From assembly GCA_041661305.1 (NCBI GenBank), contig JBAZUR010000001.1, positions 99,833 to 163,832 of the forward strand: a stretch of DNA of 64,000 bases, in the 5' to 3' direction. Origin of the DNA: Minisyncoccota bacterium (GTDB taxonomy: Bacteria; Patescibacteriota; Minisyncoccia; Phycocordibacterales; VMEP01). The notes beneath the pieces were generated by a model. It saw only the letters and a program-made list of their open reading frames with translations, was not told the DNA's origin and did not search any database. Positions 4,478 to 22,200 of the stretch are shown in pieces (the stretch's first letter is position 1; every line of letters begins with the position of its first letter). Position numbers and translations under genes: made by a program.

Positions 4478-4643
4478 AACTTGTACAACATTAAATTTAT
4501 TTTTGCAAATTTAGGGTTATTTCTGTTTTTAAAAACACACATAAAACTTTGCTAAGTTTTTGTTATGCTCGGCCCGGTCGGCCTGCGCAATGTTTTAAAA
4601 AACAGAAATGAGAGCACGAAGAAATCGGTTAAATAACAAAAAA

Positions 4644-11437: not shown

Positions 11438-12508
11438 ATGAAAAATTCAAACGAAAATAAAGCAATGGAAAATGTTGCGTTCTATCGCAAATATCGTCCG
11501 CAGAAATTCGCGGACGTTTTAGGACAAGAGCACGTTGTTTCTGTTATTGAGAATTCGCTTTCGTCTGAAAGCATAGTTCATGCATATCTTTTTGCCGGTT
11601 CTCGCGGAACGGGCAAAACTTCAATCGCGCGCATTCTTGCTCGCGAACTCGGCACGTCGGACAATGACCTATACGAAATAGATGCCGCATCAAACCGTGG
11701 AATCGATGATGTCCGCGCATTGAAAGAATCGGTGCAGTCTCTACCTTTCGATTCAAAGTACAAAGTTTATATTATCGACGAGGTTCATATGCTCACCAAA
11801 GAAGCTTTTAACGCGCTTTTGAAAACTCTTGAAGAACCTCCAAAATATGTAATCTTCATTTTAGCGACGACTGAAATTGAAAAATTACCAGAGACGGTTG
11901 TGTCGCGTTGTCAGGTTTTCCAATTTAAAAAACCATCTCTTGAAACGTTGCGCGGGGTGATAGAAAAAATTGTTAAATCTGAAGGATACAAAATAGAGAA
12001 ATCAGCGGGGGAGCTTATCGCTCTTTTGGGCGAAGGTTCGTTCCGTGACACGCAGGGGATTTTGCAAAAAGTGATCGGACTTTCAAAAGGGAAGGAAATT
12101 ACTCGCACGGAGGTAGAGAACATCACCGGTGCGCCAGCGACAGAACTCGTGCGTGATTTTATTTTGGCGATTGCAACGCACGATTTGGAACGCGGGCTTT
12201 CTGCGGTGGGGAATACAGGAAAAGAGAATCGCGACATGAAGGTATATGCCAAACTCGTCTTGCGACAATTGCGCGCAGGGCTACTTTTGAAATATGCACC
12301 AGCGGGAGCAGAAAGTTTACTTTCAGATTTTGACGAGGACGAAAAGAAGTTTTTGAACACTCTCATTAAAGAAAATGGCAAGAATATCACCTCGGCGGTT
12401 TTAATAGAACTTCTCACCGCATACCAGCTTCTCGACTATTCTTACATCCCAGAACTTCCTTTAGAACTTGCTCTGATTAAGATTGTCGGGCAAAATGACC
12501 GAAGTTAG
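11438..12508 (+). CDS. dnaX: DNA polymerase III subunit gamma/tau (short form)
   Basis: AAA+ clamp-loader motifs GSRGTGKTS, DEVHML, SRC; 356 aa. Confidence 0.9.
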   Translation: MKNSNENKAMENVAFYRKYRPQKFADVLGQEHVVSVIENSLSSESIVHAYLFAGSRGTGKTSIARILARELGTSDNDLYEIDAASNRGIDDVRALKESVQSLPFDSKYKVYIIDEVHMLTKEAFNALLKTLEEPPKYVIFILATTEIEKLPETVVSRCQVFQFKKPSLETLRGVIEKIVKSEGYKIEKSAGELIALLGEGSFRDTQGILQKVIGLSKGKEITRTEVENITGAPATELVRDFILAIATHDLERGLSAVGNTGKENRDMKVYAKLVLRQLRAGLLLKYAPAGAESLLSDFDEDEKKFLNTLIKENGKNITSAVLIELLTAYQLLDYSYIPELPLELALIKIVGQNDRS

Positions 12509-12566
12509 TTAAGGGCTTTAGGCTTTGCTAATAAGCTAATCCCTAAAAGCTAACAGCTGTATTTAT

Positions 12567-12637
12567 TGGGGGATCGTCTAACGGTAGGACATGAGCCTTT
12601 GAAGCTCAGTATCTAGGTTCGATTCCTAGTCCCCCAG
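12567..12637 (+). tRNA. tRNA-Gln (anticodon UUG)
   Basis: Manual fold: 7 bp acceptor TGGGGGA/TCCCCCA, D-arm GTCT/GGAC, anticodon stem TGAGC/GCTCA with loop CTTTGAA, T-arm CTAGG-TTCGATT-CCTAG, discriminator G; no encoded CCA. Confidence 0.85.
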
Positions 12638-12639
12638 TT

Positions 12640-13398
12640 ATGAATGATTTTATAAAATCATCTGTTGATTGGTTTAAAGAGAAAACTAATAGTTCCCTGT
12701 ATTTTACTTATTTTGTTTTTGTTGTTGTTTGGAATTGGAAAACATTTTTCACTTTATTTTTTGAGGACGCCTCTCTTTTTGAGGCGCCTAGAGTTGAGTA
12801 TGTGTTAACCAATTTCGGGGTACACTTTTATGCTACTGAGGAGATTATTCTTTATCGGGTTTTAGAATTTTTTACAAACATCATATGGCATGCAGGAGTA
12901 CCAATATTACTTACTTTTTGGGCGGTAAAATATTTACCTAGATTTAATGCATGGGCACATGAAATTGAAGTGGAAAATTACTATAAAAGGAAGCGCGTTT
13001 ATGACGCCAAGAAGATTACGTATGAAGAAGAAAAGACTTTCTTTTTAAAAACAGAAGCGGAAGAAAAAATAAAACAGAAGACTGCAAAGGATTCCATTCA
13101 GAAATCTCAGACTCAAGAAGAAAAATGGGAGTCTGAATTTTTGAGAATTGACGAGGAAGATGTTCGTGCGATTCAGGTTGGGGTTAGTACTATTTATGGA
13201 AAATCAGGACACTTTACGACTGATCCATTAAAAATGGCAGCAATTTCACAATATGGTAAGTACATCTCGCACGATTTGTATGCACGCCTTGATTCTATGA
13301 ATCTCATAAAAAAGGATAATAACAACTCAAGTAAAATAGAATTCACCGAAAAGGGAAAGTATTTTGTTCGTAAATTACAAGAACAAAAGAGGGTTTAA
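12640..13398 (+). CDS. Hypothetical protein (N-terminal hydrophobic segment), first gene of tRNA-Gln-adjacent island
   Basis: ATG 3 nt after tRNA 3' end; 252 aa; no family recognised. Confidence 0.5.
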   Translation: MNDFIKSSVDWFKEKTNSSLYFTYFVFVVVWNWKTFFTLFFEDASLFEAPRVEYVLTNFGVHFYATEEIILYRVLEFFTNIIWHAGVPILLTFWAVKYLPRFNAWAHEIEVENYYKRKRVYDAKKITYEEEKTFFLKTEAEEKIKQKTAKDSIQKSQTQEEKWESEFLRIDEEDVRAIQVGVSTIYGKSGHFTTDPLKMAAISQYGKYISHDLYARLDSMNLIKKDNNNSSKIEFTEKGKYFVRKLQEQKRV

Positions 13399-13502
13399 AG
13401 GGTAATTTTTGGTTCGTCGTTTAAGTTTGAGATAATTTTCGACTTTGAAGGGTGGGGATAGTGTTTCGCATTCTGTTATATGGCAATTTGGAATAATACA
13501 CA

Positions 13503-13748
13503 ATGGAATATTATGATGTGTATATGCCAAGAGCAATTTATACAAAAGACCATAACGAAATTGTTGAACGCTTGAAAAAGGCGCGACTTAAGGCTGGTTT
13601 TGGGCAGGTTGAGGTTGCAGAAAAACTTGGTAAAACTCAGTCTTATGTTTCTAAGATAGAATCGGGACAAAGACGTTTTGATGTTTTGCAGTTGAAAGAA
13701 TTTGCAAAAATATACAAGAAAAAAATCGATTATTTTATTTCTGACTAA
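13503..13748 (+). CDS. XRE-family HTH controller (C) protein of the R-M module
   Basis: 81 aa with HTH AGFGQVEVAEKLGKTQSYVSKIESGQR; ends 3 nt before the putative restriction endonuclease gene. Confidence 0.7.
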   Translation: MEYYDVYMPRAIYTKDHNEIVERLKKARLKAGFGQVEVAEKLGKTQSYVSKIESGQRRFDVLQLKEFAKIYKKKIDYFISD

Positions 13749-13750
13749 AT

Positions 13751-14785
13751 ATGAAACTAGAACCAAAAAATGTAGTGGAGAGTTTACATAAAATTATGTG
13801 CTCTTCTACGAGCACCCAAGCTGACGCGAGAGTTGATAATAATGATTACTTTAAGAGACGCGTGCTTGGTTTTAAGGCAGAAATTGAATTTGAGAAACTT
13901 ATTGAAAACTATCAAAACATCCAATTTCTTGAGGGAGGACAACTTATATCAAAAGCTCTTTCTGGATCAGCTAGTGATTCAAATAAATTTATATACACTA
14001 CACTTTCTTATGATAAACCAGAGAAATACTTAGAAGTATATAAAGCTGTTTCAAATTGGTCAGATGTTGGCGAAATGTTTTATTTGGAAACAAATGACAA
14101 GTGGACTTATGGTGAACTTCAAGTTAAAGATACATCTACATCTCCAAAAAGAGCAGAAAAGATACTCAAACCTAGTTGTATTTTTTGGATCTATAATAAA
14201 AGTAAGGCAATTTTCGAAAAGCATATTGAGCAAGATTACGGCTGTGTTCTTAGCGGTTTTGAAAATTCAGGTAGAGAACCTTCCGTCTTTCCTTTGAGGA
14301 AACGTGAACAGTTTGATTATTTTTTGGAATATAACATCGATATACTTAAAAAAATATATGCTACAAGATATTTCCTCGATGTAGTATTAAGGAAAGCAAG
14401 TAAAAGAAAAATTATAGATTTTGATGGATTCCTAAAATACAAGCAAGGGCTATCACTCATCGAGATAAAAGAAAAAACACCAATTGTTGGTGAACGGGAT
14501 CCAGCCGATCAAATGCAGTGGAAATATGGCTGGGACTCGAGAAGAATTTTATGGTATCTATATTTTTCGAGTAAGATTAATATGCCAATTATTTATAATG
14601 TTCGACATATTAACAACAGGACTGAAAGAAAATTTATTCAGTGGGATTCTATAACCATTGATACTTTTCTTTCTGGATCTGATTGGTCAAAAGGTAGAGG
14701 AGGCGGAGGTGGGGAGGATACTATGCTTGCCCCATATCTTTTCTTTGAAAGAGTAGAAAAAACACTTGAAAAACTTAATCGGTAA
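13751..14785 (+). CDS. Putative Type II restriction endonuclease (PD-(D/E)XK-like)
   Basis: Position between C protein and convergent MTase; candidate catalytic motif FD...IEIKEK (D-X12-E-X-K); 344 aa. Confidence 0.5.
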   Translation: MKLEPKNVVESLHKIMCSSTSTQADARVDNNDYFKRRVLGFKAEIEFEKLIENYQNIQFLEGGQLISKALSGSASDSNKFIYTTLSYDKPEKYLEVYKAVSNWSDVGEMFYLETNDKWTYGELQVKDTSTSPKRAEKILKPSCIFWIYNKSKAIFEKHIEQDYGCVLSGFENSGREPSVFPLRKREQFDYFLEYNIDILKKIYATRYFLDVVLRKASKRKIIDFDGFLKYKQGLSLIEIKEKTPIVGERDPADQMQWKYGWDSRRILWYLYFSSKINMPIIYNVRHINNRTERKFIQWDSITIDTFLSGSDWSKGRGGGGGEDTMLAPYLFFERVEKTLEKLNR

Positions 14786-16433
14786 ATGCTAAGTTTTTAT
14801 TTTTAGCTAACACTTTACTGACACTAGCTCTTTTTATTTTCTCAATATCTATTCTACCTAATTTATTAGAAGATTTCTCCTCCAATTGATTCAGAGATTT
14901 TAAGACTTCTTTTGCTAATGCTGTAATTACAGGCACAGCAACACTATTCCCAAATTGTTTATATGCTTGCGCATCGCTGACCGGTATCTTGAATGAATCA
15001 GGAAACCCTTGTAATCGTGCAGCCTCTCTAGGAGTGAGTTTTCGAGGATTTTTACTTTTTTGCTCAATGAGAATTTCTGAACCATCTTTATAATATCGTG
15101 CAGATATAGTACTTGTGTATTCTGAATTTTCATTAAACATAGAATATCCGAAACCGTTTCCTTTTTCCCTATGTTCTTTTTTTCTCCTTTGGTGCCCCGC
15201 CCACAACTTGTCGGATATCGTATATTTAGGATCAACCTTTTTTTCAAGAATATTTCCAAGGCGAGTTTTTATGCCCGAAGGTTCAGGAAAAGAAAAATTA
15301 GTTTTTCCTAAAAATCCTATTATATATATACGTTCTCTGTTTTGGGGAACACCAAAGTCTTTTGCATTGAGAACTTTTGAATAGACTTCGTAACCAAGTT
15401 GCTCAAGGATATTATTTATTGTTTCAAAAGTTCTTCCATTATCATGACTCTTAAATCGTTTAACATTTTCTAGAAAAACTACTCTAGGTCTGTGGTATTC
15501 AAGAATTTTAGCGATATCAAAAAATAACGTACCTCTTGTATCTGCAAGACCAAGTTTTTTCCCAGCTTGAGAAAATGGCTGACAAGGGAAGCCAGCAAGT
15601 AATATGTCAAAAGGTGAGATTTCTTCTGGTTTAAACTTGGTAATATCTCCAAACGGAATTTCGGCAAAATTTGCACGATAAGTTTTTTGCGCTGGTTCAT
15701 CCCACTCCGAACTGAAAACTGATTTCGCCCCTATACTTTCAAAGCCTGTTCTTATACCACCTATTCCTGCAAATAGATCTATGACTCTAAGTAATTTTTG
15801 TTGAGAATAATTTTGTTCTTTTTCCGTTTTTTCATTAATGTTTCTTACTATTTGGACAACTACACCTCGGACCTCAACTTCTTTTCTATAAAAAGGGAGC
15901 ATATTTTGATTTCTCGGCTCAAGGCGGAATCCTTTTTTTTCACGATAAAGTTTTTTTAACGTGGCTTGGTTTTCATCAATTATGGCTACAACAGTTTGGC
16001 CATCTTCTGCTACGTCTTGCTTTCTTATGACCACGATGTCTCCCTCAAAAATTCCATCATCCATCATACTGTTTCCAATGACACGGAGAGCATAGTAATC
16101 TTTGGAATTCTTAATATTGGGGTTTACTATCGATATAGTGTCCTGCCTATCTTCTATGGCTTCAATTGGCTGACCGGCGGCAATGGTTCCTAAAATAGGA
16201 ATTTCAAAAATATATTTTATATCTTTTTTGGGTGAAATATTTCTAGATAAATTTTCAGATTTTGAGAGGTAGCCTTTTTCTTTTAAATAGTGAATATGTT
16301 CATGTATTGTGGATATCGCTTTAAGCTTTAGCTTTTTCCTTATTTCTTCAAGGGTTGGCGATATGCCATTTTCAGCGATGTATGTATTTATAAAATCGAA
16401 GACCTGTTTTTGTTTTTTTGTTAGGTTTGCCAT
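14775..16433 (-). CDS. Fusion protein: full-length LexA repressor (HTH + S24 peptidase) joined to a C5-cytosine DNA methyltransferase
   Basis: N-terminus aligns to LexA throughout (LTKKQKQVFDFI; GTIAAGQP Ala-Gly site; GNSM Ser; TLKKL Lys). C-terminus has m5C MTase motifs I FAGIGG, IV GFPCQPFS, VI ENV, VIII QNRERIYIIG, X GNSVAVPV. Single 552 aa ORF. Confidence 0.85.
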   Translation of the reverse strand: MANLTKKQKQVFDFINTYIAENGISPTLEEIRKKLKLKAISTIHEHIHYLKEKGYLSKSENLSRNISPKKDIKYIFEIPILGTIAAGQPIEAIEDRQDTISIVNPNIKNSKDYYALRVIGNSMMDDGIFEGDIVVIRKQDVAEDGQTVVAIIDENQATLKKLYREKKGFRLEPRNQNMLPFYRKEVEVRGVVVQIVRNINEKTEKEQNYSQQKLLRVIDLFAGIGGIRTGFESIGAKSVFSSEWDEPAQKTYRANFAEIPFGDITKFKPEEISPFDILLAGFPCQPFSQAGKKLGLADTRGTLFFDIAKILEYHRPRVVFLENVKRFKSHDNGRTFETINNILEQLGYEVYSKVLNAKDFGVPQNRERIYIIGFLGKTNFSFPEPSGIKTRLGNILEKKVDPKYTISDKLWAGHQRRKKEHREKGNGFGYSMFNENSEYTSTISARYYKDGSEILIEQKSKNPRKLTPREAARLQGFPDSFKIPVSDAQAYKQFGNSVAVPVITALAKEVLKSLNQLEEKSSNKLGRIDIEKIKRASVSKVLAKNKNLAFTD

Positions 16434-16514
16434 ATTGCTAAAAAAATTTATTTGCGATACAGTTTATATTATAACCGAAAATAAACCGAAACATAAGGGC
16501 GACTTATCCACAAG

Positions 16515-17414
16515 ATGAAAAAAGGGAGAAATGAAAAATGTCCATGCGGAAGTGGTTTGAAATATAAGAAATGTCATATGAACAAATCCCGAGAGATTGG
16601 AGTATTACGCAAAGCATACGACATGGGTAAAGACCATGATTTTTATACTCGTTTTTTATTTGGTCTTGGCAACATCAGAAGTTGTGCATACGGAAGAGAT
16701 AAGCAACTTGAGTATGATAAAAGTTTTAGTCCGGTTTTCCAAAATCTAGTTGAAATGAATATTGTAAAAAAGAAATGCGTCGCACTTATTTCTCAACATC
16801 GTGAGGCGGTTGAAACAGGCAAAGATGGGAAATACCATGGTAACCAAATTGACGTAAACGAACCTATTGAGGATGAACTAAATATTTTCTTTAAGGACTT
16901 TTTCATTCGTGGTGAAATGGCAATAGGAAGTCTTATTGCACACTCGCGATACGTGGGATCAAATATCGGGTTTCTTTTTACGGACGACGAAAAGAAATTT
17001 CGCAAGGGATTGGCAAAATTTGTGTTAAACGAGAACGATGAGCGTTTTAAGGGGTTAAATGCGTTCATGAAGCATAATCGAACAACATGGTACGAATCTT
17101 TCAATGACCTTCGCAATAAAATTGAACACGAAGGGTGGCATTTGCCGAATTTGCAGTACACACTTGATTCAAATAATAAAGTGCAGGTTCGGTTACCGAC
17201 ATCCCCCAGTCAAACTATTGAAGAAATTTTGGAGTCATATTGGCAAAGCATGAGTATGTTTTGTGAGGAAGTCATCGTTTTTCTTTTGAGCCTTAAGTTG
17301 AAAGAAGACATGATTATTGTATTTATTCCAGAAGAAAAACGAGATAAAAATTTACCTGTTCGATATATTGTCAGTCATAAAGATTTTCCTGGTGTTTTGT
17401 TGCAGTGCGGGTAA
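16515..17414 (+). CDS. SEC-C motif (CPCGSG..KCH zinc-binding) domain protein, function unknown
   Basis: N-terminal CPCGSGLKYKKCH; 299 aa. Confidence 0.5.
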   Translation: MKKGRNEKCPCGSGLKYKKCHMNKSREIGVLRKAYDMGKDHDFYTRFLFGLGNIRSCAYGRDKQLEYDKSFSPVFQNLVEMNIVKKKCVALISQHREAVETGKDGKYHGNQIDVNEPIEDELNIFFKDFFIRGEMAIGSLIAHSRYVGSNIGFLFTDDEKKFRKGLAKFVLNENDERFKGLNAFMKHNRTTWYESFNDLRNKIEHEGWHLPNLQYTLDSNNKVQVRLPTSPSQTIEEILESYWQSMSMFCEEVIVFLLSLKLKEDMIIVFIPEEKRDKNLPVRYIVSHKDFPGVLLQCG

Positions 17415-17425
17415 AGGGAGCATCC

Positions 17426-17462
17426 CCGCCGTCTCCTATTTTTTCCCACGGCGGGGATATTG
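17426..17462 (+). terminator. Hairpin ATCCCCGCCGT...ACGGCGGGGAT after the SEC-C gene
   Basis: 11 bp perfect stem. Confidence 0.5.
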
Positions 17463-17494
17463 CGCGCGAACGAGGGGTGAGATGAATGGCATTT

Positions 17495-17551
17495 TCAAAA
17501 TGATATAATACGAAAATGGAAAAAGTACCTTATACAAACTTAACCGTATTT
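17495..17551 (+). repeat. Direct repeat copy 1 (about 57 bp): extended -10 TGATATAAT plus truncated 16-codon ORF MEKVPYTNLTVFVLEH
   Basis: About 86% identical to 19656-19712. Confidence 0.8.
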
Positions 17552-17600
17552 GTTCTTGAGCACTAACCATTAGATGAGCTCTTAGAATATATTACTTAAC

Positions 17601-19100
17601 ATGTCTTTCAAGTTATCAAAAACCAATTTTCTAATATGTCTTGATTGTGCAAAAAACGCATGGCTTAAGATTCATAAACCAGACATATACAAGAAAAAAT
17701 CTCCTTCTTCTTTTGAGTTAAACATCATTGATACTGGTAATCAAATTGACGAGCTTGCTCGTGATCTTTTCCCAAACGGAACACTTGTTGATTCTCGTGA
17801 GGATACGGAACTTACAAAAAAACTCATGGCCGATAAAATACCTGTAATTTATCAGCCAGTATTTGCTACAGAAAAATTTATTATCGCCTCCGATATTTTT
17901 GTTTGGAATGCGGATACAAATCTATATGATCTGTATGAAGTAAAATCTTCAACTTCTTCAGAAGAAGAGGGTGGAAGAAAAACTGAAGATTATTTGATTG
18001 ATATGGCTTTTCAAAAAAATATTCTAAATGACTTAGGTATTCAGATTGGCACTCTTAATTTAATTCGACTCAACAAAACATATGTTCGAATGGGAAATAT
18101 TGAGTTAAAAGAACTATTTTTTATTGAAAATTTTACTGATCAAGTAAACGAAAAACTTGAGGATATAAAACAAAAAATGGATGGTGCTTACGAGCTACTA
18201 TCTAAAGAAAAAGAACCGCAAGGGCACTGTGATTGTATTTTGAAAGGGAAAAATTCGCACTGCACGACTTCGTGGTATTCAAACTCTGATCTTCCCGAGT
18301 ACTCTGTTCATTCAATCGCTCGAATTCACAAGAAAAAACTAATTGAATTAGTTGATAGTAATATATTTAGTATTCATGATGTTCCAGACGGTTTTGAGTT
18401 GTCAGATAATCAACGAAGACAGGTAAATACCGCACAGTCGGGTAGGGAGTATATTGATAAGAATGGAATCTCAGAGTTTTTGGAGACTATGAAATATCCT
18501 CTTGCTTTTCTTGATTACGAAACATATCCTTCTGCAATCCCAAAATATAATGGATACAGACCATATCAACAAATTCCATTCCAATTTTCACTTCATGTTA
18601 TTGACTCGCCAACCAGTGAATCTGTTCACTATGATTTTATTTATACAGATCAAGAGTGCCCAGATACATACTTTTCTGAAGCATTAAAAAAGCATCTTCC
18701 AAAAATAGGAAGTATTGTTGTGTGGAGCCAAAGATTTGAAAAAGGTATCAATGAACAAATTGGTGAACGTTTGCCTGACTATAAAAATTTTATGCAGGAA
18801 GTGAATAATCGTGTAGTTGACCTGATGATTCCTTTCTTTGGCAAGACAACAATGTATGACCACCCAAAATTCAAAGGTAGTGCTTCAATAAAATATGTTT
18901 TGCCTGCTCTTGTTCCCACTCTGTCTTATAAAGATATGCACATTCAAGAAGGAGGTACGGCAGCCGACACATGGAATCGTATTGTGTCTGGAGAATATTC
19001 TGAAAATGACAAAAATATGAAAATACAAGCACTCAAGGATTATTGTCATCTCGATACTTTGGCGATGGTTGAAATTTGGAGAGTCTTAAAATCAGTTTAG
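17601..19100 (+). CDS. PD-(D/E)XK (Cas4/RecB-like) nuclease domain fused to a DUF2779 RNase H-like domain
   Basis: N-terminus CLDC and D..LYEVK motif; C-terminus LAFLDYETY...PYQQIPFQFSLH typical of DUF2779; 499 aa. Confidence 0.55.
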   Translation: MSFKLSKTNFLICLDCAKNAWLKIHKPDIYKKKSPSSFELNIIDTGNQIDELARDLFPNGTLVDSREDTELTKKLMADKIPVIYQPVFATEKFIIASDIFVWNADTNLYDLYEVKSSTSSEEEGGRKTEDYLIDMAFQKNILNDLGIQIGTLNLIRLNKTYVRMGNIELKELFFIENFTDQVNEKLEDIKQKMDGAYELLSKEKEPQGHCDCILKGKNSHCTTSWYSNSDLPEYSVHSIARIHKKKLIELVDSNIFSIHDVPDGFELSDNQRRQVNTAQSGREYIDKNGISEFLETMKYPLAFLDYETYPSAIPKYNGYRPYQQIPFQFSLHVIDSPTSESVHYDFIYTDQECPDTYFSEALKKHLPKIGSIVVWSQRFEKGINEQIGERLPDYKNFMQEVNNRVVDLMIPFFGKTTMYDHPKFKGSASIKYVLPALVPTLSYKDMHIQEGGTAADTWNRIVSGEYSENDKNMKIQALKDYCHLDTLAMVEIWRVLKSV

Positions 19101-19621
19101 AAAAGGGGGCAAATGATATTTTTAAAATGGTAGACTTTACGAAACCGAAGCATTCAGCAATTCATATGCCACGAAAAACAATAAAAAATGCCGGCGACCA
19201 AGATTTTAAGCCGGACTTAACTCCGAAGGAAATGCTTGAGCTCGGTGTATTTGGCGGATTATATTTTTCTGATAAACCTAAAGAGTTTCCAAGGAGTTGG
19301 TTTGTGAAAGCAAAATTGTCGCCTGATGGAAAACGCCACAAAGAACTGAACTTTTTCGGCATAAATGCGAGCCAACCGCTTTCTGTGTGGAAAACTAAAG
19401 GGTGGATTCATCCACAAGATCCGCGTGGATGGTTTCAGTGGTACTGCAGATATTACATTGGGCGTCGGACTGTTGATGATGAGCGACAAATAAAAAGGTG
19501 GAGAGCCATACGCAGGCACATTGTGCAAATTAAAAACAATTGCCGAACCGGAGATATTTTTTGCCGACCTCGGCAAAGACAAGCATTGCTTCACTGGGCT
19601 TACGACTCGCGGAAAATGTAA
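19076..19621 (+). CDS. Hypothetical basic protein (true start possibly ATG at 19127)
   Basis: 181 aa ORF overlapping the end of the nuclease gene; Trp/Arg-rich C-terminus. Confidence 0.4.
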   Translation: MESLKISLEKGANDIFKMVDFTKPKHSAIHMPRKTIKNAGDQDFKPDLTPKEMLELGVFGGLYFSDKPKEFPRSWFVKAKLSPDGKRHKELNFFGINASQPLSVWKTKGWIHPQDPRGWFQWYCRYYIGRRTVDDERQIKRWRAIRRHIVQIKNNCRTGDIFCRPRQRQALLHWAYDSRKM

Positions 19622-19655
19622 TAAAGATTCTCCCGAGATAGATTTTTTGCGGGCA

Positions 19656-19712
19656 CCAAAATGATATAATACAAAAATGGAAAAGGTACCATACACAAAT
19701 TTAGCCATCTTT
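19656..19712 (+). repeat. Direct repeat copy 2: TGATATAAT promoter plus start of an intact small membrane-protein gene
   Basis: Matches 17495-17551. Confidence 0.8.
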
Positions 19713-19829
19713 GCCCTTTTCTTTGGTGTTGCTCTTCTAGAAGCAATTCAAAGAAGTAATTGGATTGAAGCAGGCCTTTTTCTCGCCCTAGGTCTTTTAT
19801 TCCTCCGCGCAGATTTTTTAAAGAAATAA
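19677..19829 (+). CDS. Small hydrophobic membrane protein (50 aa), intact copy of the ORF truncated at 17516
   Basis: MEKVPYTNLAIFALFFGVALL...; stop overlaps next start (TAATG). Confidence 0.5.
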   Translation: MEKVPYTNLAIFALFFGVALLEAIQRSNWIEAGLFLALGLLFLRADFLKK

Positions 19830-20425
19830 TGAATATGAAAAATTTTTATACAATCATCCCAATTTTAATCGCTTTGTCTGTCGGGGTTTATTTCTCGCTT
19901 ACAGTTGATGAAAAGAAAGTGACAAATAATAACAACACGTATCCAAATTATTCAAACGAAGTGCTTGGTATCGAATTTGCCTATCGCGCAGGACCAGACG
20001 GATATGTGATACAAGAACACTTTGTATCGAAGTCAGCTGAAGATTTGCTTGGCACGATTGTACTCATGAGGACTGAAGACGCCGAGAGACCAATGCCTGT
20101 CGGTGGTGAGGGTCCAGCAACTATCACTATTCAAGTGCTTAAGAATTCAAAGAAACAACAGTCAGAGGCGTGGGCAAATGCGAATAACATATACAGCAAT
20201 ATCAATCTTAAAACAGGCGAGGTGAGTGAGTATGTTCTCGGTGGAGCAAACGCAATTAGATATTCTGCTACTGGTCTTTATGAATCAGACAATGTGGTGG
20301 TGGCTCACGGCGAGAACGTATATGTGCTCAGCGGAAACTATATGGACGCTGAATCAGATTTGCGAAAAGATTTTACTCCACTTCTTGAATCAGTCAGATT
20401 CATCCCGCAACCAAGACAAAATTAA
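19829..20425 (+). CDS. Hypothetical membrane-anchored protein
   Basis: N-terminal TM; 198 aa. Confidence 0.5.
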   Translation: MNMKNFYTIIPILIALSVGVYFSLTVDEKKVTNNNNTYPNYSNEVLGIEFAYRAGPDGYVIQEHFVSKSAEDLLGTIVLMRTEDAERPMPVGGEGPATITIQVLKNSKKQQSEAWANANNIYSNINLKTGEVSEYVLGGANAIRYSATGLYESDNVVVAHGENVYVLSGNYMDAESDLRKDFTPLLESVRFIPQPRQN

Positions 20426-20585
20426 GGATGAAAAGACAATGTGCAAAAAATGCACACTGTGAATCGAAGGCAAAACATATGGTGGCGTTAGTAACACAGA
20501 TGCTGAAGTAGTTGTTATAAAGAGACGAGAGGGGCTTGTGGAACGAGCCGTTAATATTTTAATCACAACTTGATATAATCTTTTT

Positions 20586-20903
20586 ATGAAAAAACCATTC
20601 CTATACGCATTCTCCGCCGCACTATATATTGTTTCTCTTATTTCCGTTATATATCTTGCCTCTCGTTTTTTGAAAGATGTGCCTGAAACTATAATTATTC
20701 CGATGACTATGCTGAGTATTTTTGTTTTGTCAGCTGCGGTTATGGGGTTCTTGTTTTTATCTGAGCCGTTATCTCTACTAGTTGAAGGCAAGAAGAGAGA
20801 AGCTATTATCTACTTTGCTAAGATTGTCGGATTTTTTGCTTGTTTCGTGATTATTTTTGCAACGATTCTTATCACCGGCCAAACTTTTCTCCCGTCATTT
20901 TAG
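20586..20903 (+). CDS. Small integral membrane protein
   Basis: Three predicted TM helices; GATATAAT -10 upstream. Confidence 0.5.
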   Translation: MKKPFLYAFSAALYIVSLISVIYLASRFLKDVPETIIIPMTMLSIFVLSAAVMGFLFLSEPLSLLVEGKKREAIIYFAKIVGFFACFVIIFATILITGQTFLPSF

Positions 20904-20927
20904 CTTCATATAAATCAACTTATTTTC

Positions 20928-21443
20928 GTGCGATATTTTCTTAAAAATTTTAGGAAGGTCTACAATGCGGACAATCCATTCGGGGCTTTTCCTTTGTGGG
21001 AATATTACCCAAAAACAGGCACACATGTAGGCACAGATTTTAAAATTGCAGTTGGTACGCCAATATTTGCTCCGGCGAACGGTGAGATGTTTAAAGTTTG
21101 GTTTGATAAATATAAAGGAAATGTTGGTGTGTATATATTTGATTATCGAAAAACTACTTGGGGCCTTGAGCTGTGTCATCTAAAAGAATTGCCCGCTGTG
21201 GGAAAATTCAAAGAAGGAGAGATAATTGCTTATTCCGGCAACACCGGCGCATCCACAACCGGCGCTCATCTTCATGCGGTGCTTCATCGTGGTGCCGAGG
21301 TCGCAGAGAATTATCAAGAATTACAAAGTCGGGAAGATTTTCTGCGACTAGAAAAAGAGGGAGCAATTGTTGATTGTTTTCAGTGGTTTTGCTCAAAAAT
21401 GAAAAGAAAAACAAAACGAGAGAAGAAAAGCAAAGCTCTTTGA
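20928..21443 (+). CDS. M23 family (LytM-like) metallopeptidase
   Basis: HVGTDF...GNTGASTTGAHLH motifs. Confidence 0.7.
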   Translation: MRYFLKNFRKVYNADNPFGAFPLWEYYPKTGTHVGTDFKIAVGTPIFAPANGEMFKVWFDKYKGNVGVYIFDYRKTTWGLELCHLKELPAVGKFKEGEIIAYSGNTGASTTGAHLHAVLHRGAEVAENYQELQSREDFLRLEKEGAIVDCFQWFCSKMKRKTKREKKSKAL

Positions 21444-21476
21444 ACCCAGTAAAAAAGGTGCTACAATCGGACGACT

Positions 21477-21593
21477 ATGCCACAAGTAAAAGGATTTCAT
21501 ATAAATAGGGGAAAGTCTCGCTCTAAAAAGACAAAGAAGCGCCTTGCTATAAAGAAGGAAATGCTCGCAAGTCGCAAAACGAAAAAGAAGTAG
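21477..21593 (+). CDS. Very small Lys-rich basic peptide (38 aa), unannotated micro-gene
   Basis: Extended -10 TGCTACAAT upstream; terminator AAGCTCATT..AATGAGCTTTTT downstream. Confidence 0.4.
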   Translation: MPQVKGFHINRGKSRSKKTKKRLAIKKEMLASRKTKKK

Positions 21594-21625
21594 TTTTAGT
21601 TTTAGAAGCCAATACTCGACTCGTC

Positions 21626-21657
21626 AAAAAGCTCATTTCAATCGGAATGAGCTTTTT
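21626..21657 (+). terminator. Intrinsic terminator AAGCTCATT-loop-AATGAGCTT + T5
   Basis: 9 bp stem followed by TTTTT. Confidence 0.6.
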
Positions 21658-21769
21658 GAGCGTTGGTGCAGAGGGAATCTTTGTCTAAATGAAAGAAAAT
21701 TGTATATCGCGTTGTACTAACAGTAGAGATATCGCGAATCTCTACTTAATAAAAAATAATAAAAATAAC

Positions 21770-22147
21770 ATGGAAAAAAGAACATTAAAATTAGGCGCAT
21801 TGGCACTCTTGCTTGGGGCTATGGGGGCACTTACTGGTACAGCTTTTGCATACCAAGGAGATCCGTCAGTTAGAGGCCCAAATTATTCAGCGGAACGTCA
21901 CGCTTCAATGGAGAAGGCGTTTGAGAGCAAAGATTATACAGCTTGGAAAAATCTTATGCCCGGAAGAGGCAGAGTAATGCAAGTTGTTAATAAAGATAAC
22001 TTTGCAAAATTTGCCGAAGCGCACGAATTGGCAGAACAAGGTAAATTTACTGAAGCACAGAAGATTCGACAAGAGATGGGATTAGGACTCCATGATGGTT
22101 TGGGGAAGAAAGTTGGCGGAATGGGGAGGGGTATGATGGGCAGATAA
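21770..22147 (+). CDS. Secreted hypothetical protein (signal peptide; start possibly earlier at 21689)
   Basis: MEKRTLKLGALALLLGAMGALTGTAFA signal peptide. Confidence 0.5.
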   Translation: MEKRTLKLGALALLLGAMGALTGTAFAYQGDPSVRGPNYSAERHASMEKAFESKDYTAWKNLMPGRGRVMQVVNKDNFAKFAEAHELAEQGKFTEAQKIRQEMGLGLHDGLGKKVGGMGRGMMGR

Positions 22148-22162
22148 ACGGTAATGTTTTTA

Positions 22163-22200
22163 CACAGCAAACTCCAGCCACAAAACTGGAGTTTGCTGTG
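22163..22200 (+). promoter_or_regulatory. Perfect 15 bp inverted repeat with 8 nt loop, 20 nt upstream of ECF sigma start
   Basis: CACAGCAAACTCCAG-CCACAAAA-CTGGAGTTTGCTGTG; no U-tract after it. Confidence 0.6.

Follow-up and report, generated by a model that had tools for sequence, protein, structure and literature searches.

An old partial duplication of a promoter and gene head beside a DUF2779 gene in a Paceibacterota genome

Introduction

Illegitimate recombination, including homology-facilitated illegitimate recombination with a one-sided anchor, makes partial gene duplications, as seen in the transformation of Acinetobacter and Streptococcus pneumoniae. Insertion sequences (ISs) and transposons leave target-site duplications of 2–14 base pairs (bp). 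Here we describe a pair of imperfect direct repeats in a 64,000-nucleotide (nt) stretch of DNA from a Minisyncoccota bacterium (assembly GCA_041661305.1, contig JBAZUR010000001.1, positions 99,833 to 163,832 of the forward strand), which is referred to below as the window. Each repeat copy carries a predicted promoter and the first 14 codons of a small gene, and the two copies bracket 2.1 kilobases (kb) with a gene of the DUF2779 family and an open reading frame (ORF) for a basic protein. The duplication is real but is an old, ordinary rearrangement scar. It is a known kind of rearrangement that occurs as a new instance in an under-studied lineage, with no new mechanism or element.

The locus resembles the products of homology-facilitated illegitimate recombination in several respects: foreign DNA lies beside a homologous anchor, neither a recombinase gene nor terminal repeats are needed, and a truncated copy can be left beside an intact one, which fits the composite make-up of the bracketed block and the sharp junction after codon 14. 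It is unlike the described cases in that the mechanism is reconstructed only, microhomology is not demonstrable at the junction. Promoter capture, as with the integron promoter Pc or promoter duplications, is similar in that a promoter-less acquired ORF sits behind a resident promoter and variable genes gather about a single strong promoter, on its upstream side as well as, in relatives, between the small gene and the downstream gene for a 198-amino-acid (aa) protein. The locus is unlike an integron in that no integrase, attI/attC or cassette-type repeats were found in it, and in that the promoter has been duplicated rather than cassettes inserted behind a fixed one. Integrated islands and prophages bounded by attachment sites (attL/attR) also have imperfect direct repeats of a gene end, one a pseudo-end and one intact, at island hot spots; at this locus, in contrast, there is no integrase, the repeat lies at a 5' end together with a promoter, and a backbone gene stands last in the bracketed DNA. 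As in IS or transposon target-site duplications, inserted DNA has direct repeats on both sides, but these are 62 bp long, are accompanied by neither transposase nor inverted repeats, and bracket DNA that is not a unit.

The repeat pair

A repeat search finds the two copies as an ungapped direct repeat of 62 nt with 84% identity and a spacing of 2161 nt (Table 1). An earlier note, written from the sequence alone, had described imperfect direct repeats of about 57 bp at about 86% identity and proposed a self-comparison; BLASTN of the window against itself returned the same pair at that length and identity (57 nt, 86%), joint first among the dispersed repeats in the 64 kb. Other direct repeats in the region are 27 nt long or shorter. 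The first 28 nt of the repeat have two matches in the window at up to one mismatch, where none is expected (100 shuffles). Homology between the copies ends sharply at either edge, and the longest run identical in both is 16 nt. The copies differ from each other by 16% and would thus not be collapsed or mis-joined in assembly. The window lies on a 476-kb JGI contig. The identical two-copy arrangement is present on a 3.5-kb contig from another sample and, in all, the same structure occurs in at least six assemblies from different samples and in two alleles, which removes the earlier concern about an assembly duplication. The repeat is a true partial duplication of a promoter and gene head, not an artefact. 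A longer duplication was considered and rejected: the 43-nt spacer that follows the left copy has no significant similarity to the small gene from codon 15 onward.

The promoter assignment in the earlier note, an extended -10 element in each copy, agrees with the location of the 9-mer TGATATAAT at 17501–17509 and 19662–19670. It fits the sigma-70-type extended -10 consensus TGnTATAAT, and in both copies an ATG (17516 and 19677) lies 6 nt past the hexamer. The window contains five copies of the 9-mer (11416, 17501, 19662, 20571 and 25505) where 0.73 would be expected, each 6–13 nt before a gene start; it precedes ruvB, both repeat copies, a 105-aa gene and a 384-aa gene. Because all five copies stand just before gene starts, TGATATAAT can be read as the genome's standard extended -10 promoter, and the box followed by an ATG 6–13 nt further on appears to be the organism's standard gene-start architecture. 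Leaderless or very-short-leader mRNAs are probably widespread in this organism. The segments that flank TGATATAAT, with the 14 codons, are common to these two copies only; in the other promoters with this box the similarity extends to neither the 5 nt before it nor the 45 nt after it, which shows that the pair is truly homologous.

Downstream of the right copy's promoter, the small gene encodes an intact 50-aa membrane protein, as the earlier note had proposed, with two hydrophobic segments. The protein is 90–96% identical in L004, L005, L051, L052, L054, L055 and L059, and more distant 50-aa homologues are 61–64% identical; in L053 the gene is broken into two frames. The 198-aa protein encoded next has 84 homologues, some of them named Candidatus Paceibacterota by their sources, and relatives of the locus were located by means of this protein. 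A scan of species genomes with it gave a single distant, irrelevant match. Homologues of 250 aa were considered as possible fusions with the small gene; this was rejected, since their extra length consists of C-terminal extensions.

The left copy as a putative promoter of DUF2779

The left copy opens an ORF of 16 codons, MEKVPYTNLTVFVLEH, followed by a stop codon, which bears out the truncated peptide seen earlier. In lineages L004 and L008, two 1-nt insertions put the same place into a different frame of 19 codons, and the peptide is therefore not a conserved product. The DNA around the promoter and start is preserved: from the -10 region through ATGGAAAAAG, 27 of 28 nt are identical between the two alleles, versus 74% identity in the 43-nt spacer that follows and upstream DNA that is essentially unalignable. 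A weak similarity between the window and L008 upstream of the left copy was discarded because its score was reached in 14 of 500 shuffles. The promoter and start region lies 85 nt upstream of the DUF2779 gene, and a terminator scan predicts no intrinsic terminator between 17557 and the DUF2779 start. In the second allele the upstream gene is a different one (DUF8370), and the left copy is kept at the same distance from DUF2779. Conservation of the promoter and start region against a diverged spacer and unalignable upstream DNA, with no predicted terminator in between, suggests that the left copy is probably a retained, captured promoter of DUF2779. Promoter capture, which the earlier note had offered as an alternative, fits best, as the DUF2779 gene, wherever else it occurs, lacks an upstream sequence of its own.

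The composite block

The gene 17601–19100 encodes a DUF2779 protein, in line with the earlier assignment. Its match to PF11074 (E 2e-37) scores 128.6 bits against a gathering cut-off of 23.3 and covers residues 303–429. The family architecture combines a Cas4-like PD-(D/E)XK domain with an RNase H-like 3'-5' exonuclease domain, and its function has not been tested experimentally (PMC3985635, PMC13621843). Residues 1–300 have no Pfam or PDB sequence match; by eye, they contain a motif-like stretch, DLYEVKSS, and cysteines arranged as C-x2-C near the N-terminus and as C-x-C-x8-C at about residues 209–220.

Scanning metagenomes with the DUF2779 protein yielded 44 loci. Outside the two alleles, nucleotide homology to the window is 72–89% and is confined to 17610 to about 19100, from start to stop codon; across the contigs of loci L009–L049, more than 35 in number, the gene is 72–92% identical. 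The 2-kb flanks of the DUF2779 loci fall into about 20 unrelated groups, and in many loci DUF2779 stands directly behind another gene. Between the window and L017, 35% of four-fold degenerate sites differ in DUF2779, versus 68% (near saturation) in an ABC-F core gene on the same contig. The ORF-limited homology and a synonymous divergence half that of the core gene argue that DUF2779 was acquired horizontally, without a promoter. Its guanine-plus-cytosine (GC) content is 34.1% (25.8% at third codon positions), similar to that of the variable island upstream of the left copy (34.8%). DUF2779 is also often found near fusions of LexA and methyltransferase domains, or behind genes with a C-terminal motif that resembles DUF559 by eye.

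The second gene of the block has a different history. The earlier note had listed a basic ORF of 181 aa; a forward ORF from a TTG at 19076 exists and its product has a pI of about 10.1–10.3, but the real start is probably the ATG at 19166, because orthologues have 146–152 aa. Its GC content (43.9%) is like that of ruvB and of the 198-aa gene. With its own upstream region (19106–19631) it occurs on contigs of L051, L053 and L059 that show no DUF2779; in L059 it adjoins the small gene, and in L051 and L053 the two are close to each other. The intergenic spacer 19622–19656 is homologous in the window, L008 and L059, so the adjacency of basic ORF and small gene is ancestral. The protein has no Pfam, NCBIfam, PHROGs, PADLOC, PDB or fold match. 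Its family is very large (>8000 homologues, 2005 clusters at 50% identity, some fusions of up to 1696 aa) and strongly conserved, and has an invariant DPRGWFQWYCRYY motif and conserved Cys and His residues.

The basic ORF is a backbone gene and not a partner of the nuclease, and the bracketed 2.1 kb are composite rather than a single unit. The earlier notion of a nuclease gene pair that arrived as one insert does not hold, with DUF2779 at an island-like 34% GC versus 44% in the backbone-like basic ORF. A role of the basic ORF as nuclease partner is likewise not borne out: it stands next to or near the small gene in relatives without DUF2779 on the contig, and it has no detectable nuclease domain.

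Relatives and breakpoints

An uninterrupted small-gene locus was sought in relatives. A single, intact promoter with the small gene is present in seven related lineages (L005, L051, L052, L053, L054, L055 and L059), and DUF2779 was not seen on the available DNA of any of them, most contigs being 3–8 kb long. The duplication thus goes with the presence of the nuclease gene. In L005, whose 198-aa gene has 86% protein identity, ruvB and tRNA-Gln are followed by a different island (HicA, T5orf172, an N6/N4 methylase and a ResIII helicase) and then by the single copy. L051 and L053 have the order basic ORF, a PyrE-like gene and OMP decarboxylase (pyrimidine biosynthesis), a terminator and the single copy; in L059 the basic ORF is followed directly by the single copy; and in L052, L054 and L055 the single copy has other neighbours.

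Homology between the window and L005 stops at 12512 and picks up again at 19655, with the first bases of the right copy. For L008 it picks up at 17498, with those of the left copy; upstream of this point stand a SEC-C protein and a hairpin in the window versus DUF8370 in L008. All variable DNA therefore abuts the promoter edge (17498 and 19655–19662). Such abutting would be expected in a compact genome that has to retain the promoter. As the variable DNA abuts a minimal promoter, the duplication may at first have extended further to the left.

In relatives, one or two extra genes also lie between the stop of the small gene and the start of the 198-aa gene (SnoaL, DUF3800, NYN and P-type ATPase). 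The sites are L051 3513–4843, L052 452–3270, L053 4750–7416 and L059 681–2619, together with sites in L054 and L055. With extra genes there as well, both sides of the small gene are prone to insertion. A-rich repeats of 8–16 nt occur at the junctions of the extra genes and may be due to chance in AT-rich DNA.

Alleles and age

A second allele with both copies in the same places is present in L004, L008, L060, L061 and L062 (JGI, WGS, ENA and Logan assemblies). The two alleles are about 91% identical over 17498–20900 and 98–100% identical from about 20900 on. Four-fold degenerate sites differ between them by 15% in DUF2779 and by 23% in both the basic ORF and the 198-aa gene, against only 8% in the M23 peptidase gene. 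The duplication is older than the split of these alleles, and the description of the rearrangement as recent is therefore not supported: it predates alleles that differ at 15–23% of four-fold sites, and its own copies are 16% apart. The comparison of window 17498–22190 with L008 5896–10525 is a mosaic in which the 160-nt intergenic region 20426–20585 barely aligns. Such mosaic identity indicates that the whole module has been exchanged by recombination between close strains.

Origin of the duplication

We consider it probable that the locus arose by an old partial duplication, through illegitimate recombination at an island edge, with the left copy retained as a captured promoter. The small gene lies on the right-hand border of a low-GC island of variable, defence-type content, which begins at tRNA-Gln, in a groundwater member of the Paceibacterota (candidate phyla radiation). 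In the common ancestor of the two alleles, illegitimate or one-sided homologous recombination at this edge would have produced the partial duplication, either together with or after the acquisition of a promoter-less DUF2779 ORF. The right copy would still drive the intact small gene and the coupled 198-aa gene. The left copy would have lost its coding function and been kept as the promoter of DUF2779, from which read-through might also serve the basic ORF. Promoter activity, leaderless transcription and the recombination mechanism are the parts of this account that we infer.

Two routes could lead to this arrangement. In the first, a donor segment with the spacer, DUF2779, the basic ORF, the promoter and the small gene would have been anchored by homology on the right and joined illegitimately after codon 14 of the recipient's gene. 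In the second, a tandem duplication ending at codon 14 would have been followed by deletion of the interior of the first copy, which would place the gene head before a resident DUF2779. Substitution patterns were tried as a test of origin and were uninformative, since bases that distinguish the left copy (TAT, AAC and GTA) are also polymorphic in single-copy orthologues; the right copy has itself changed (ATC and GCC). Upstream of the left copy, a 9-bp GC-rich hairpin with arms CCCCGCCGT and ACGGCGGGG follows the SEC-C gene (window 17415–17465). The 5' arm of this hairpin, the 19-mer AGCATCCCCGCCGTCTCCT, lies 59 nt before the left copy, and L017 has an exact second occurrence of it (868–896) about 50 nt ahead of DUF2779. 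A decayed copy of the promoter and gene head in the L017 upstream region, or homology to the window beyond the hairpin arm, was not significant.

Several points weigh against this account. The absence of DUF2779 upstream of a single copy is firm for L005 only, and the L059 contig begins inside the basic ORF. An exact empty site, with the same upstream flank and a single copy, was not found in any relative. Alignments of 62 nt are too short and too homoplasic to separate a copy made in situ from one derived from a donor. The window used to measure conservation of the left promoter was picked after the alignment had been inspected, and use of that promoter by DUF2779 is deduced from sequence. 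The recurrence of AGCATCCCCGCCGTCTCCT in L017, between otherwise unrelated flanks, hints that DUF2779 was resident before the gene head was copied, which leans towards the second route and bears on the sub-mechanism only.

The most serious alternative, which we regard as unlikely though worth weighing, is that the left copy is a functionless by-product of recombination at the island edge, with expression of DUF2779 coming from read-through or a different signal. The peptide is not conserved and the left copy is frameshifted in L004 and L008; the hairpin after the SEC-C gene (17424–17457), which lacks a T-tract and was not called by the terminator scan, might allow read-through; and the dataset comprises two alleles only. 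A neutral by-product, however, does not sit easily with 27 of 28 conserved nt in the -10 box and start region, versus flanking non-coding DNA that is 74% identical or unalignable, or with a left copy kept at the same distance from DUF2779 despite a different upstream gene.

It seems improbable that DUF2779 is a selfish, ORF-sized mobile nuclease gene, similar to a homing endonuclease, that spreads among Paceibacterota by inserting beside active promoters, the duplicated gene head being the footprint of its nuclease-initiated, repair-mediated insertion.

A slightly dimmer prospect, by now largely refuted, is that codon 14 of the small gene received, by transposition, a discrete mobile cassette of 2.1 kb made up of DUF2779 and the basic ORF, which left a 62-bp target-site duplication, as in the earlier proposal of an insertion with duplication of its target. 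The block does lie between direct repeats, with a truncated left copy and an intact right one, and single-copy relatives show no DUF2779. Against this, over the stretch between tRNA-Gln and the small gene neither the window nor L005 nor L060 encodes a transposase, integrase or other recombinase (by Pfam families), none of the 22 inverted pairs in 16000–21500 links the block ends (about 17558 and about 19656), and 62 bp is several-fold above known target duplications. The block is also composite, with DUF2779 homology that ends at the ORF and a basic ORF of different GC content and ancestral adjacency. It never recurs as a unit outside this locus: DUF2779 homology is limited to the ORF in the 44 loci, and the basic ORF occurs separately.

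Integration of a circular element that carried its own promoter and gene head, and so restored the small gene at whose 5' end it inserted between attL and attR, is very improbable. A partial gene copy at one end with an intact, restored gene at the other, differences between the copies that are partly synonymous, and an island hot spot beside a tRNA gene would all suit such an event. The lack of an integrase in the same three sequences speaks against it, as does an identical core of only 16 nt; the element's right end would moreover be a backbone gene with its ancestral intergenic spacer. Single-copy loci, that of L005 among them, have other upstream DNA and so provide no exact empty site. Neither tRNA-derived attachment-site repeats nor other long repeats were found across the island. 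With no recombinase, linking inverted repeats, tRNA-derived repeats or recurrence as a unit, both transposon-type target duplication and integrase attachment sites are unlikely. An assembly artefact or a chance likeness of two consensus promoters can be set aside, since, generic as TGATATAAT is here and metagenomic as the assemblies are, the similarity reaches from 8 nt before the box to 45 nt after it, into coding sequence, is unique to the pair and recurs in identical structures from different samples.

As a partial duplication with a probably captured promoter, the locus may offer a clean, dated example, read from sequence, in which a streamlined candidate-phyla genome brought an acquired nuclease gene that lacked a promoter into expression. 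Duplication of a minimal extended -10 promoter would have carried along a stub of the adjacent gene that is dispensable. The locus further outlines a hot spot of recombination that extends from tRNA-Gln through the small gene to the 198-aa gene, and in which restriction-modification and accessory genes are swapped between near-identical strains.

Features of the locus

Table 1. Positions of the repeat copies and neighbouring features in the window
Feature	Position	Strand	Remarks
tRNA-Gln, left border of the variable low-GC island	12566..12638	+	Found at this border in L005 and L008 too
Variable island upstream of the left copy	12639..17495	.	252-aa ORF, helix-turn-helix protein, 344-aa ORF, LexA-S24-C5 methyltransferase fusion, SEC-C protein; GC 34.8%
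Left repeat copy: predicted promoter and remnant of the small gene's first 14 codons	17496..17557	+	84% identical to 19657-19718; homology to the other allele (L008/L004) begins at 17498
Left-copy extended -10 TGATATAAT, putative DUF2779 promoter	17501..17509	+	Identical in both alleles; 9-mer precedes 5 gene starts
16-codon remnant ORF MEKVPYTNLTVFVLEH and stop; not a conserved peptide	17516..17566	+	Read from sequence
Spacer from remnant to DUF2779 start, 43 nt	17558..17600	+	Only in window-type and L008-type alleles, 74% identical
DUF2779 protein, 499 aa; horizontally acquired	17601..19100	+	PF11074, E 2e-37
Basic protein, about 151 aa	19166..19621	+	GC 43.9%; unit 19106-19631 also in L051, L053 and L059
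Intergenic spacer from basic ORF to right copy	19622..19656	+	Homologous in window, L008 and L059
Right repeat copy: functional promoter (predicted) and the small gene's first 14 codons	19657..19718	+	Repeat search; L005 (different island, single copy) homology begins at 19655
Small gene: 50-aa protein with two predicted membrane helices	19677..19829	+	Stop overlaps next gene start (TAATG)
198-aa lineage-specific secreted or membrane-anchored protein, downstream partner of the small gene	19829..20425	+	84 homologues

The island and other observations

An Rfam scan of 12000–21500 gave the tRNA as its sole match. Between the 252-aa ORF and the left repeat, L008 and L060 carry Mrr, a 277-aa protein, another LexA-methyltransferase fusion and DUF8370. 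The window's own fusion (14775–16433, minus strand) joins a LexA DNA-binding domain, an S24 self-cleaving peptidase and a C-5 cytosine methyltransferase in one protein, and further versions occur in swapped islands of L008 (2738–4315), L019 (8747–10378) and L026 (443–2002). The 344-aa ORF beside it has no known domain and is possibly a restriction enzyme. Elsewhere in the window, the upstream regions of a relA/spoT-like gene and of topA (2141–2243 and 4500–4602, minus strand) have in common a repeat of about 105–120 nt that is 74% identical. It contains a small GC hairpin with compensatory stem changes (CGCG/CGCG versus GGCC/GGCC) and may be a shared regulatory element or a repeated intergenic element.

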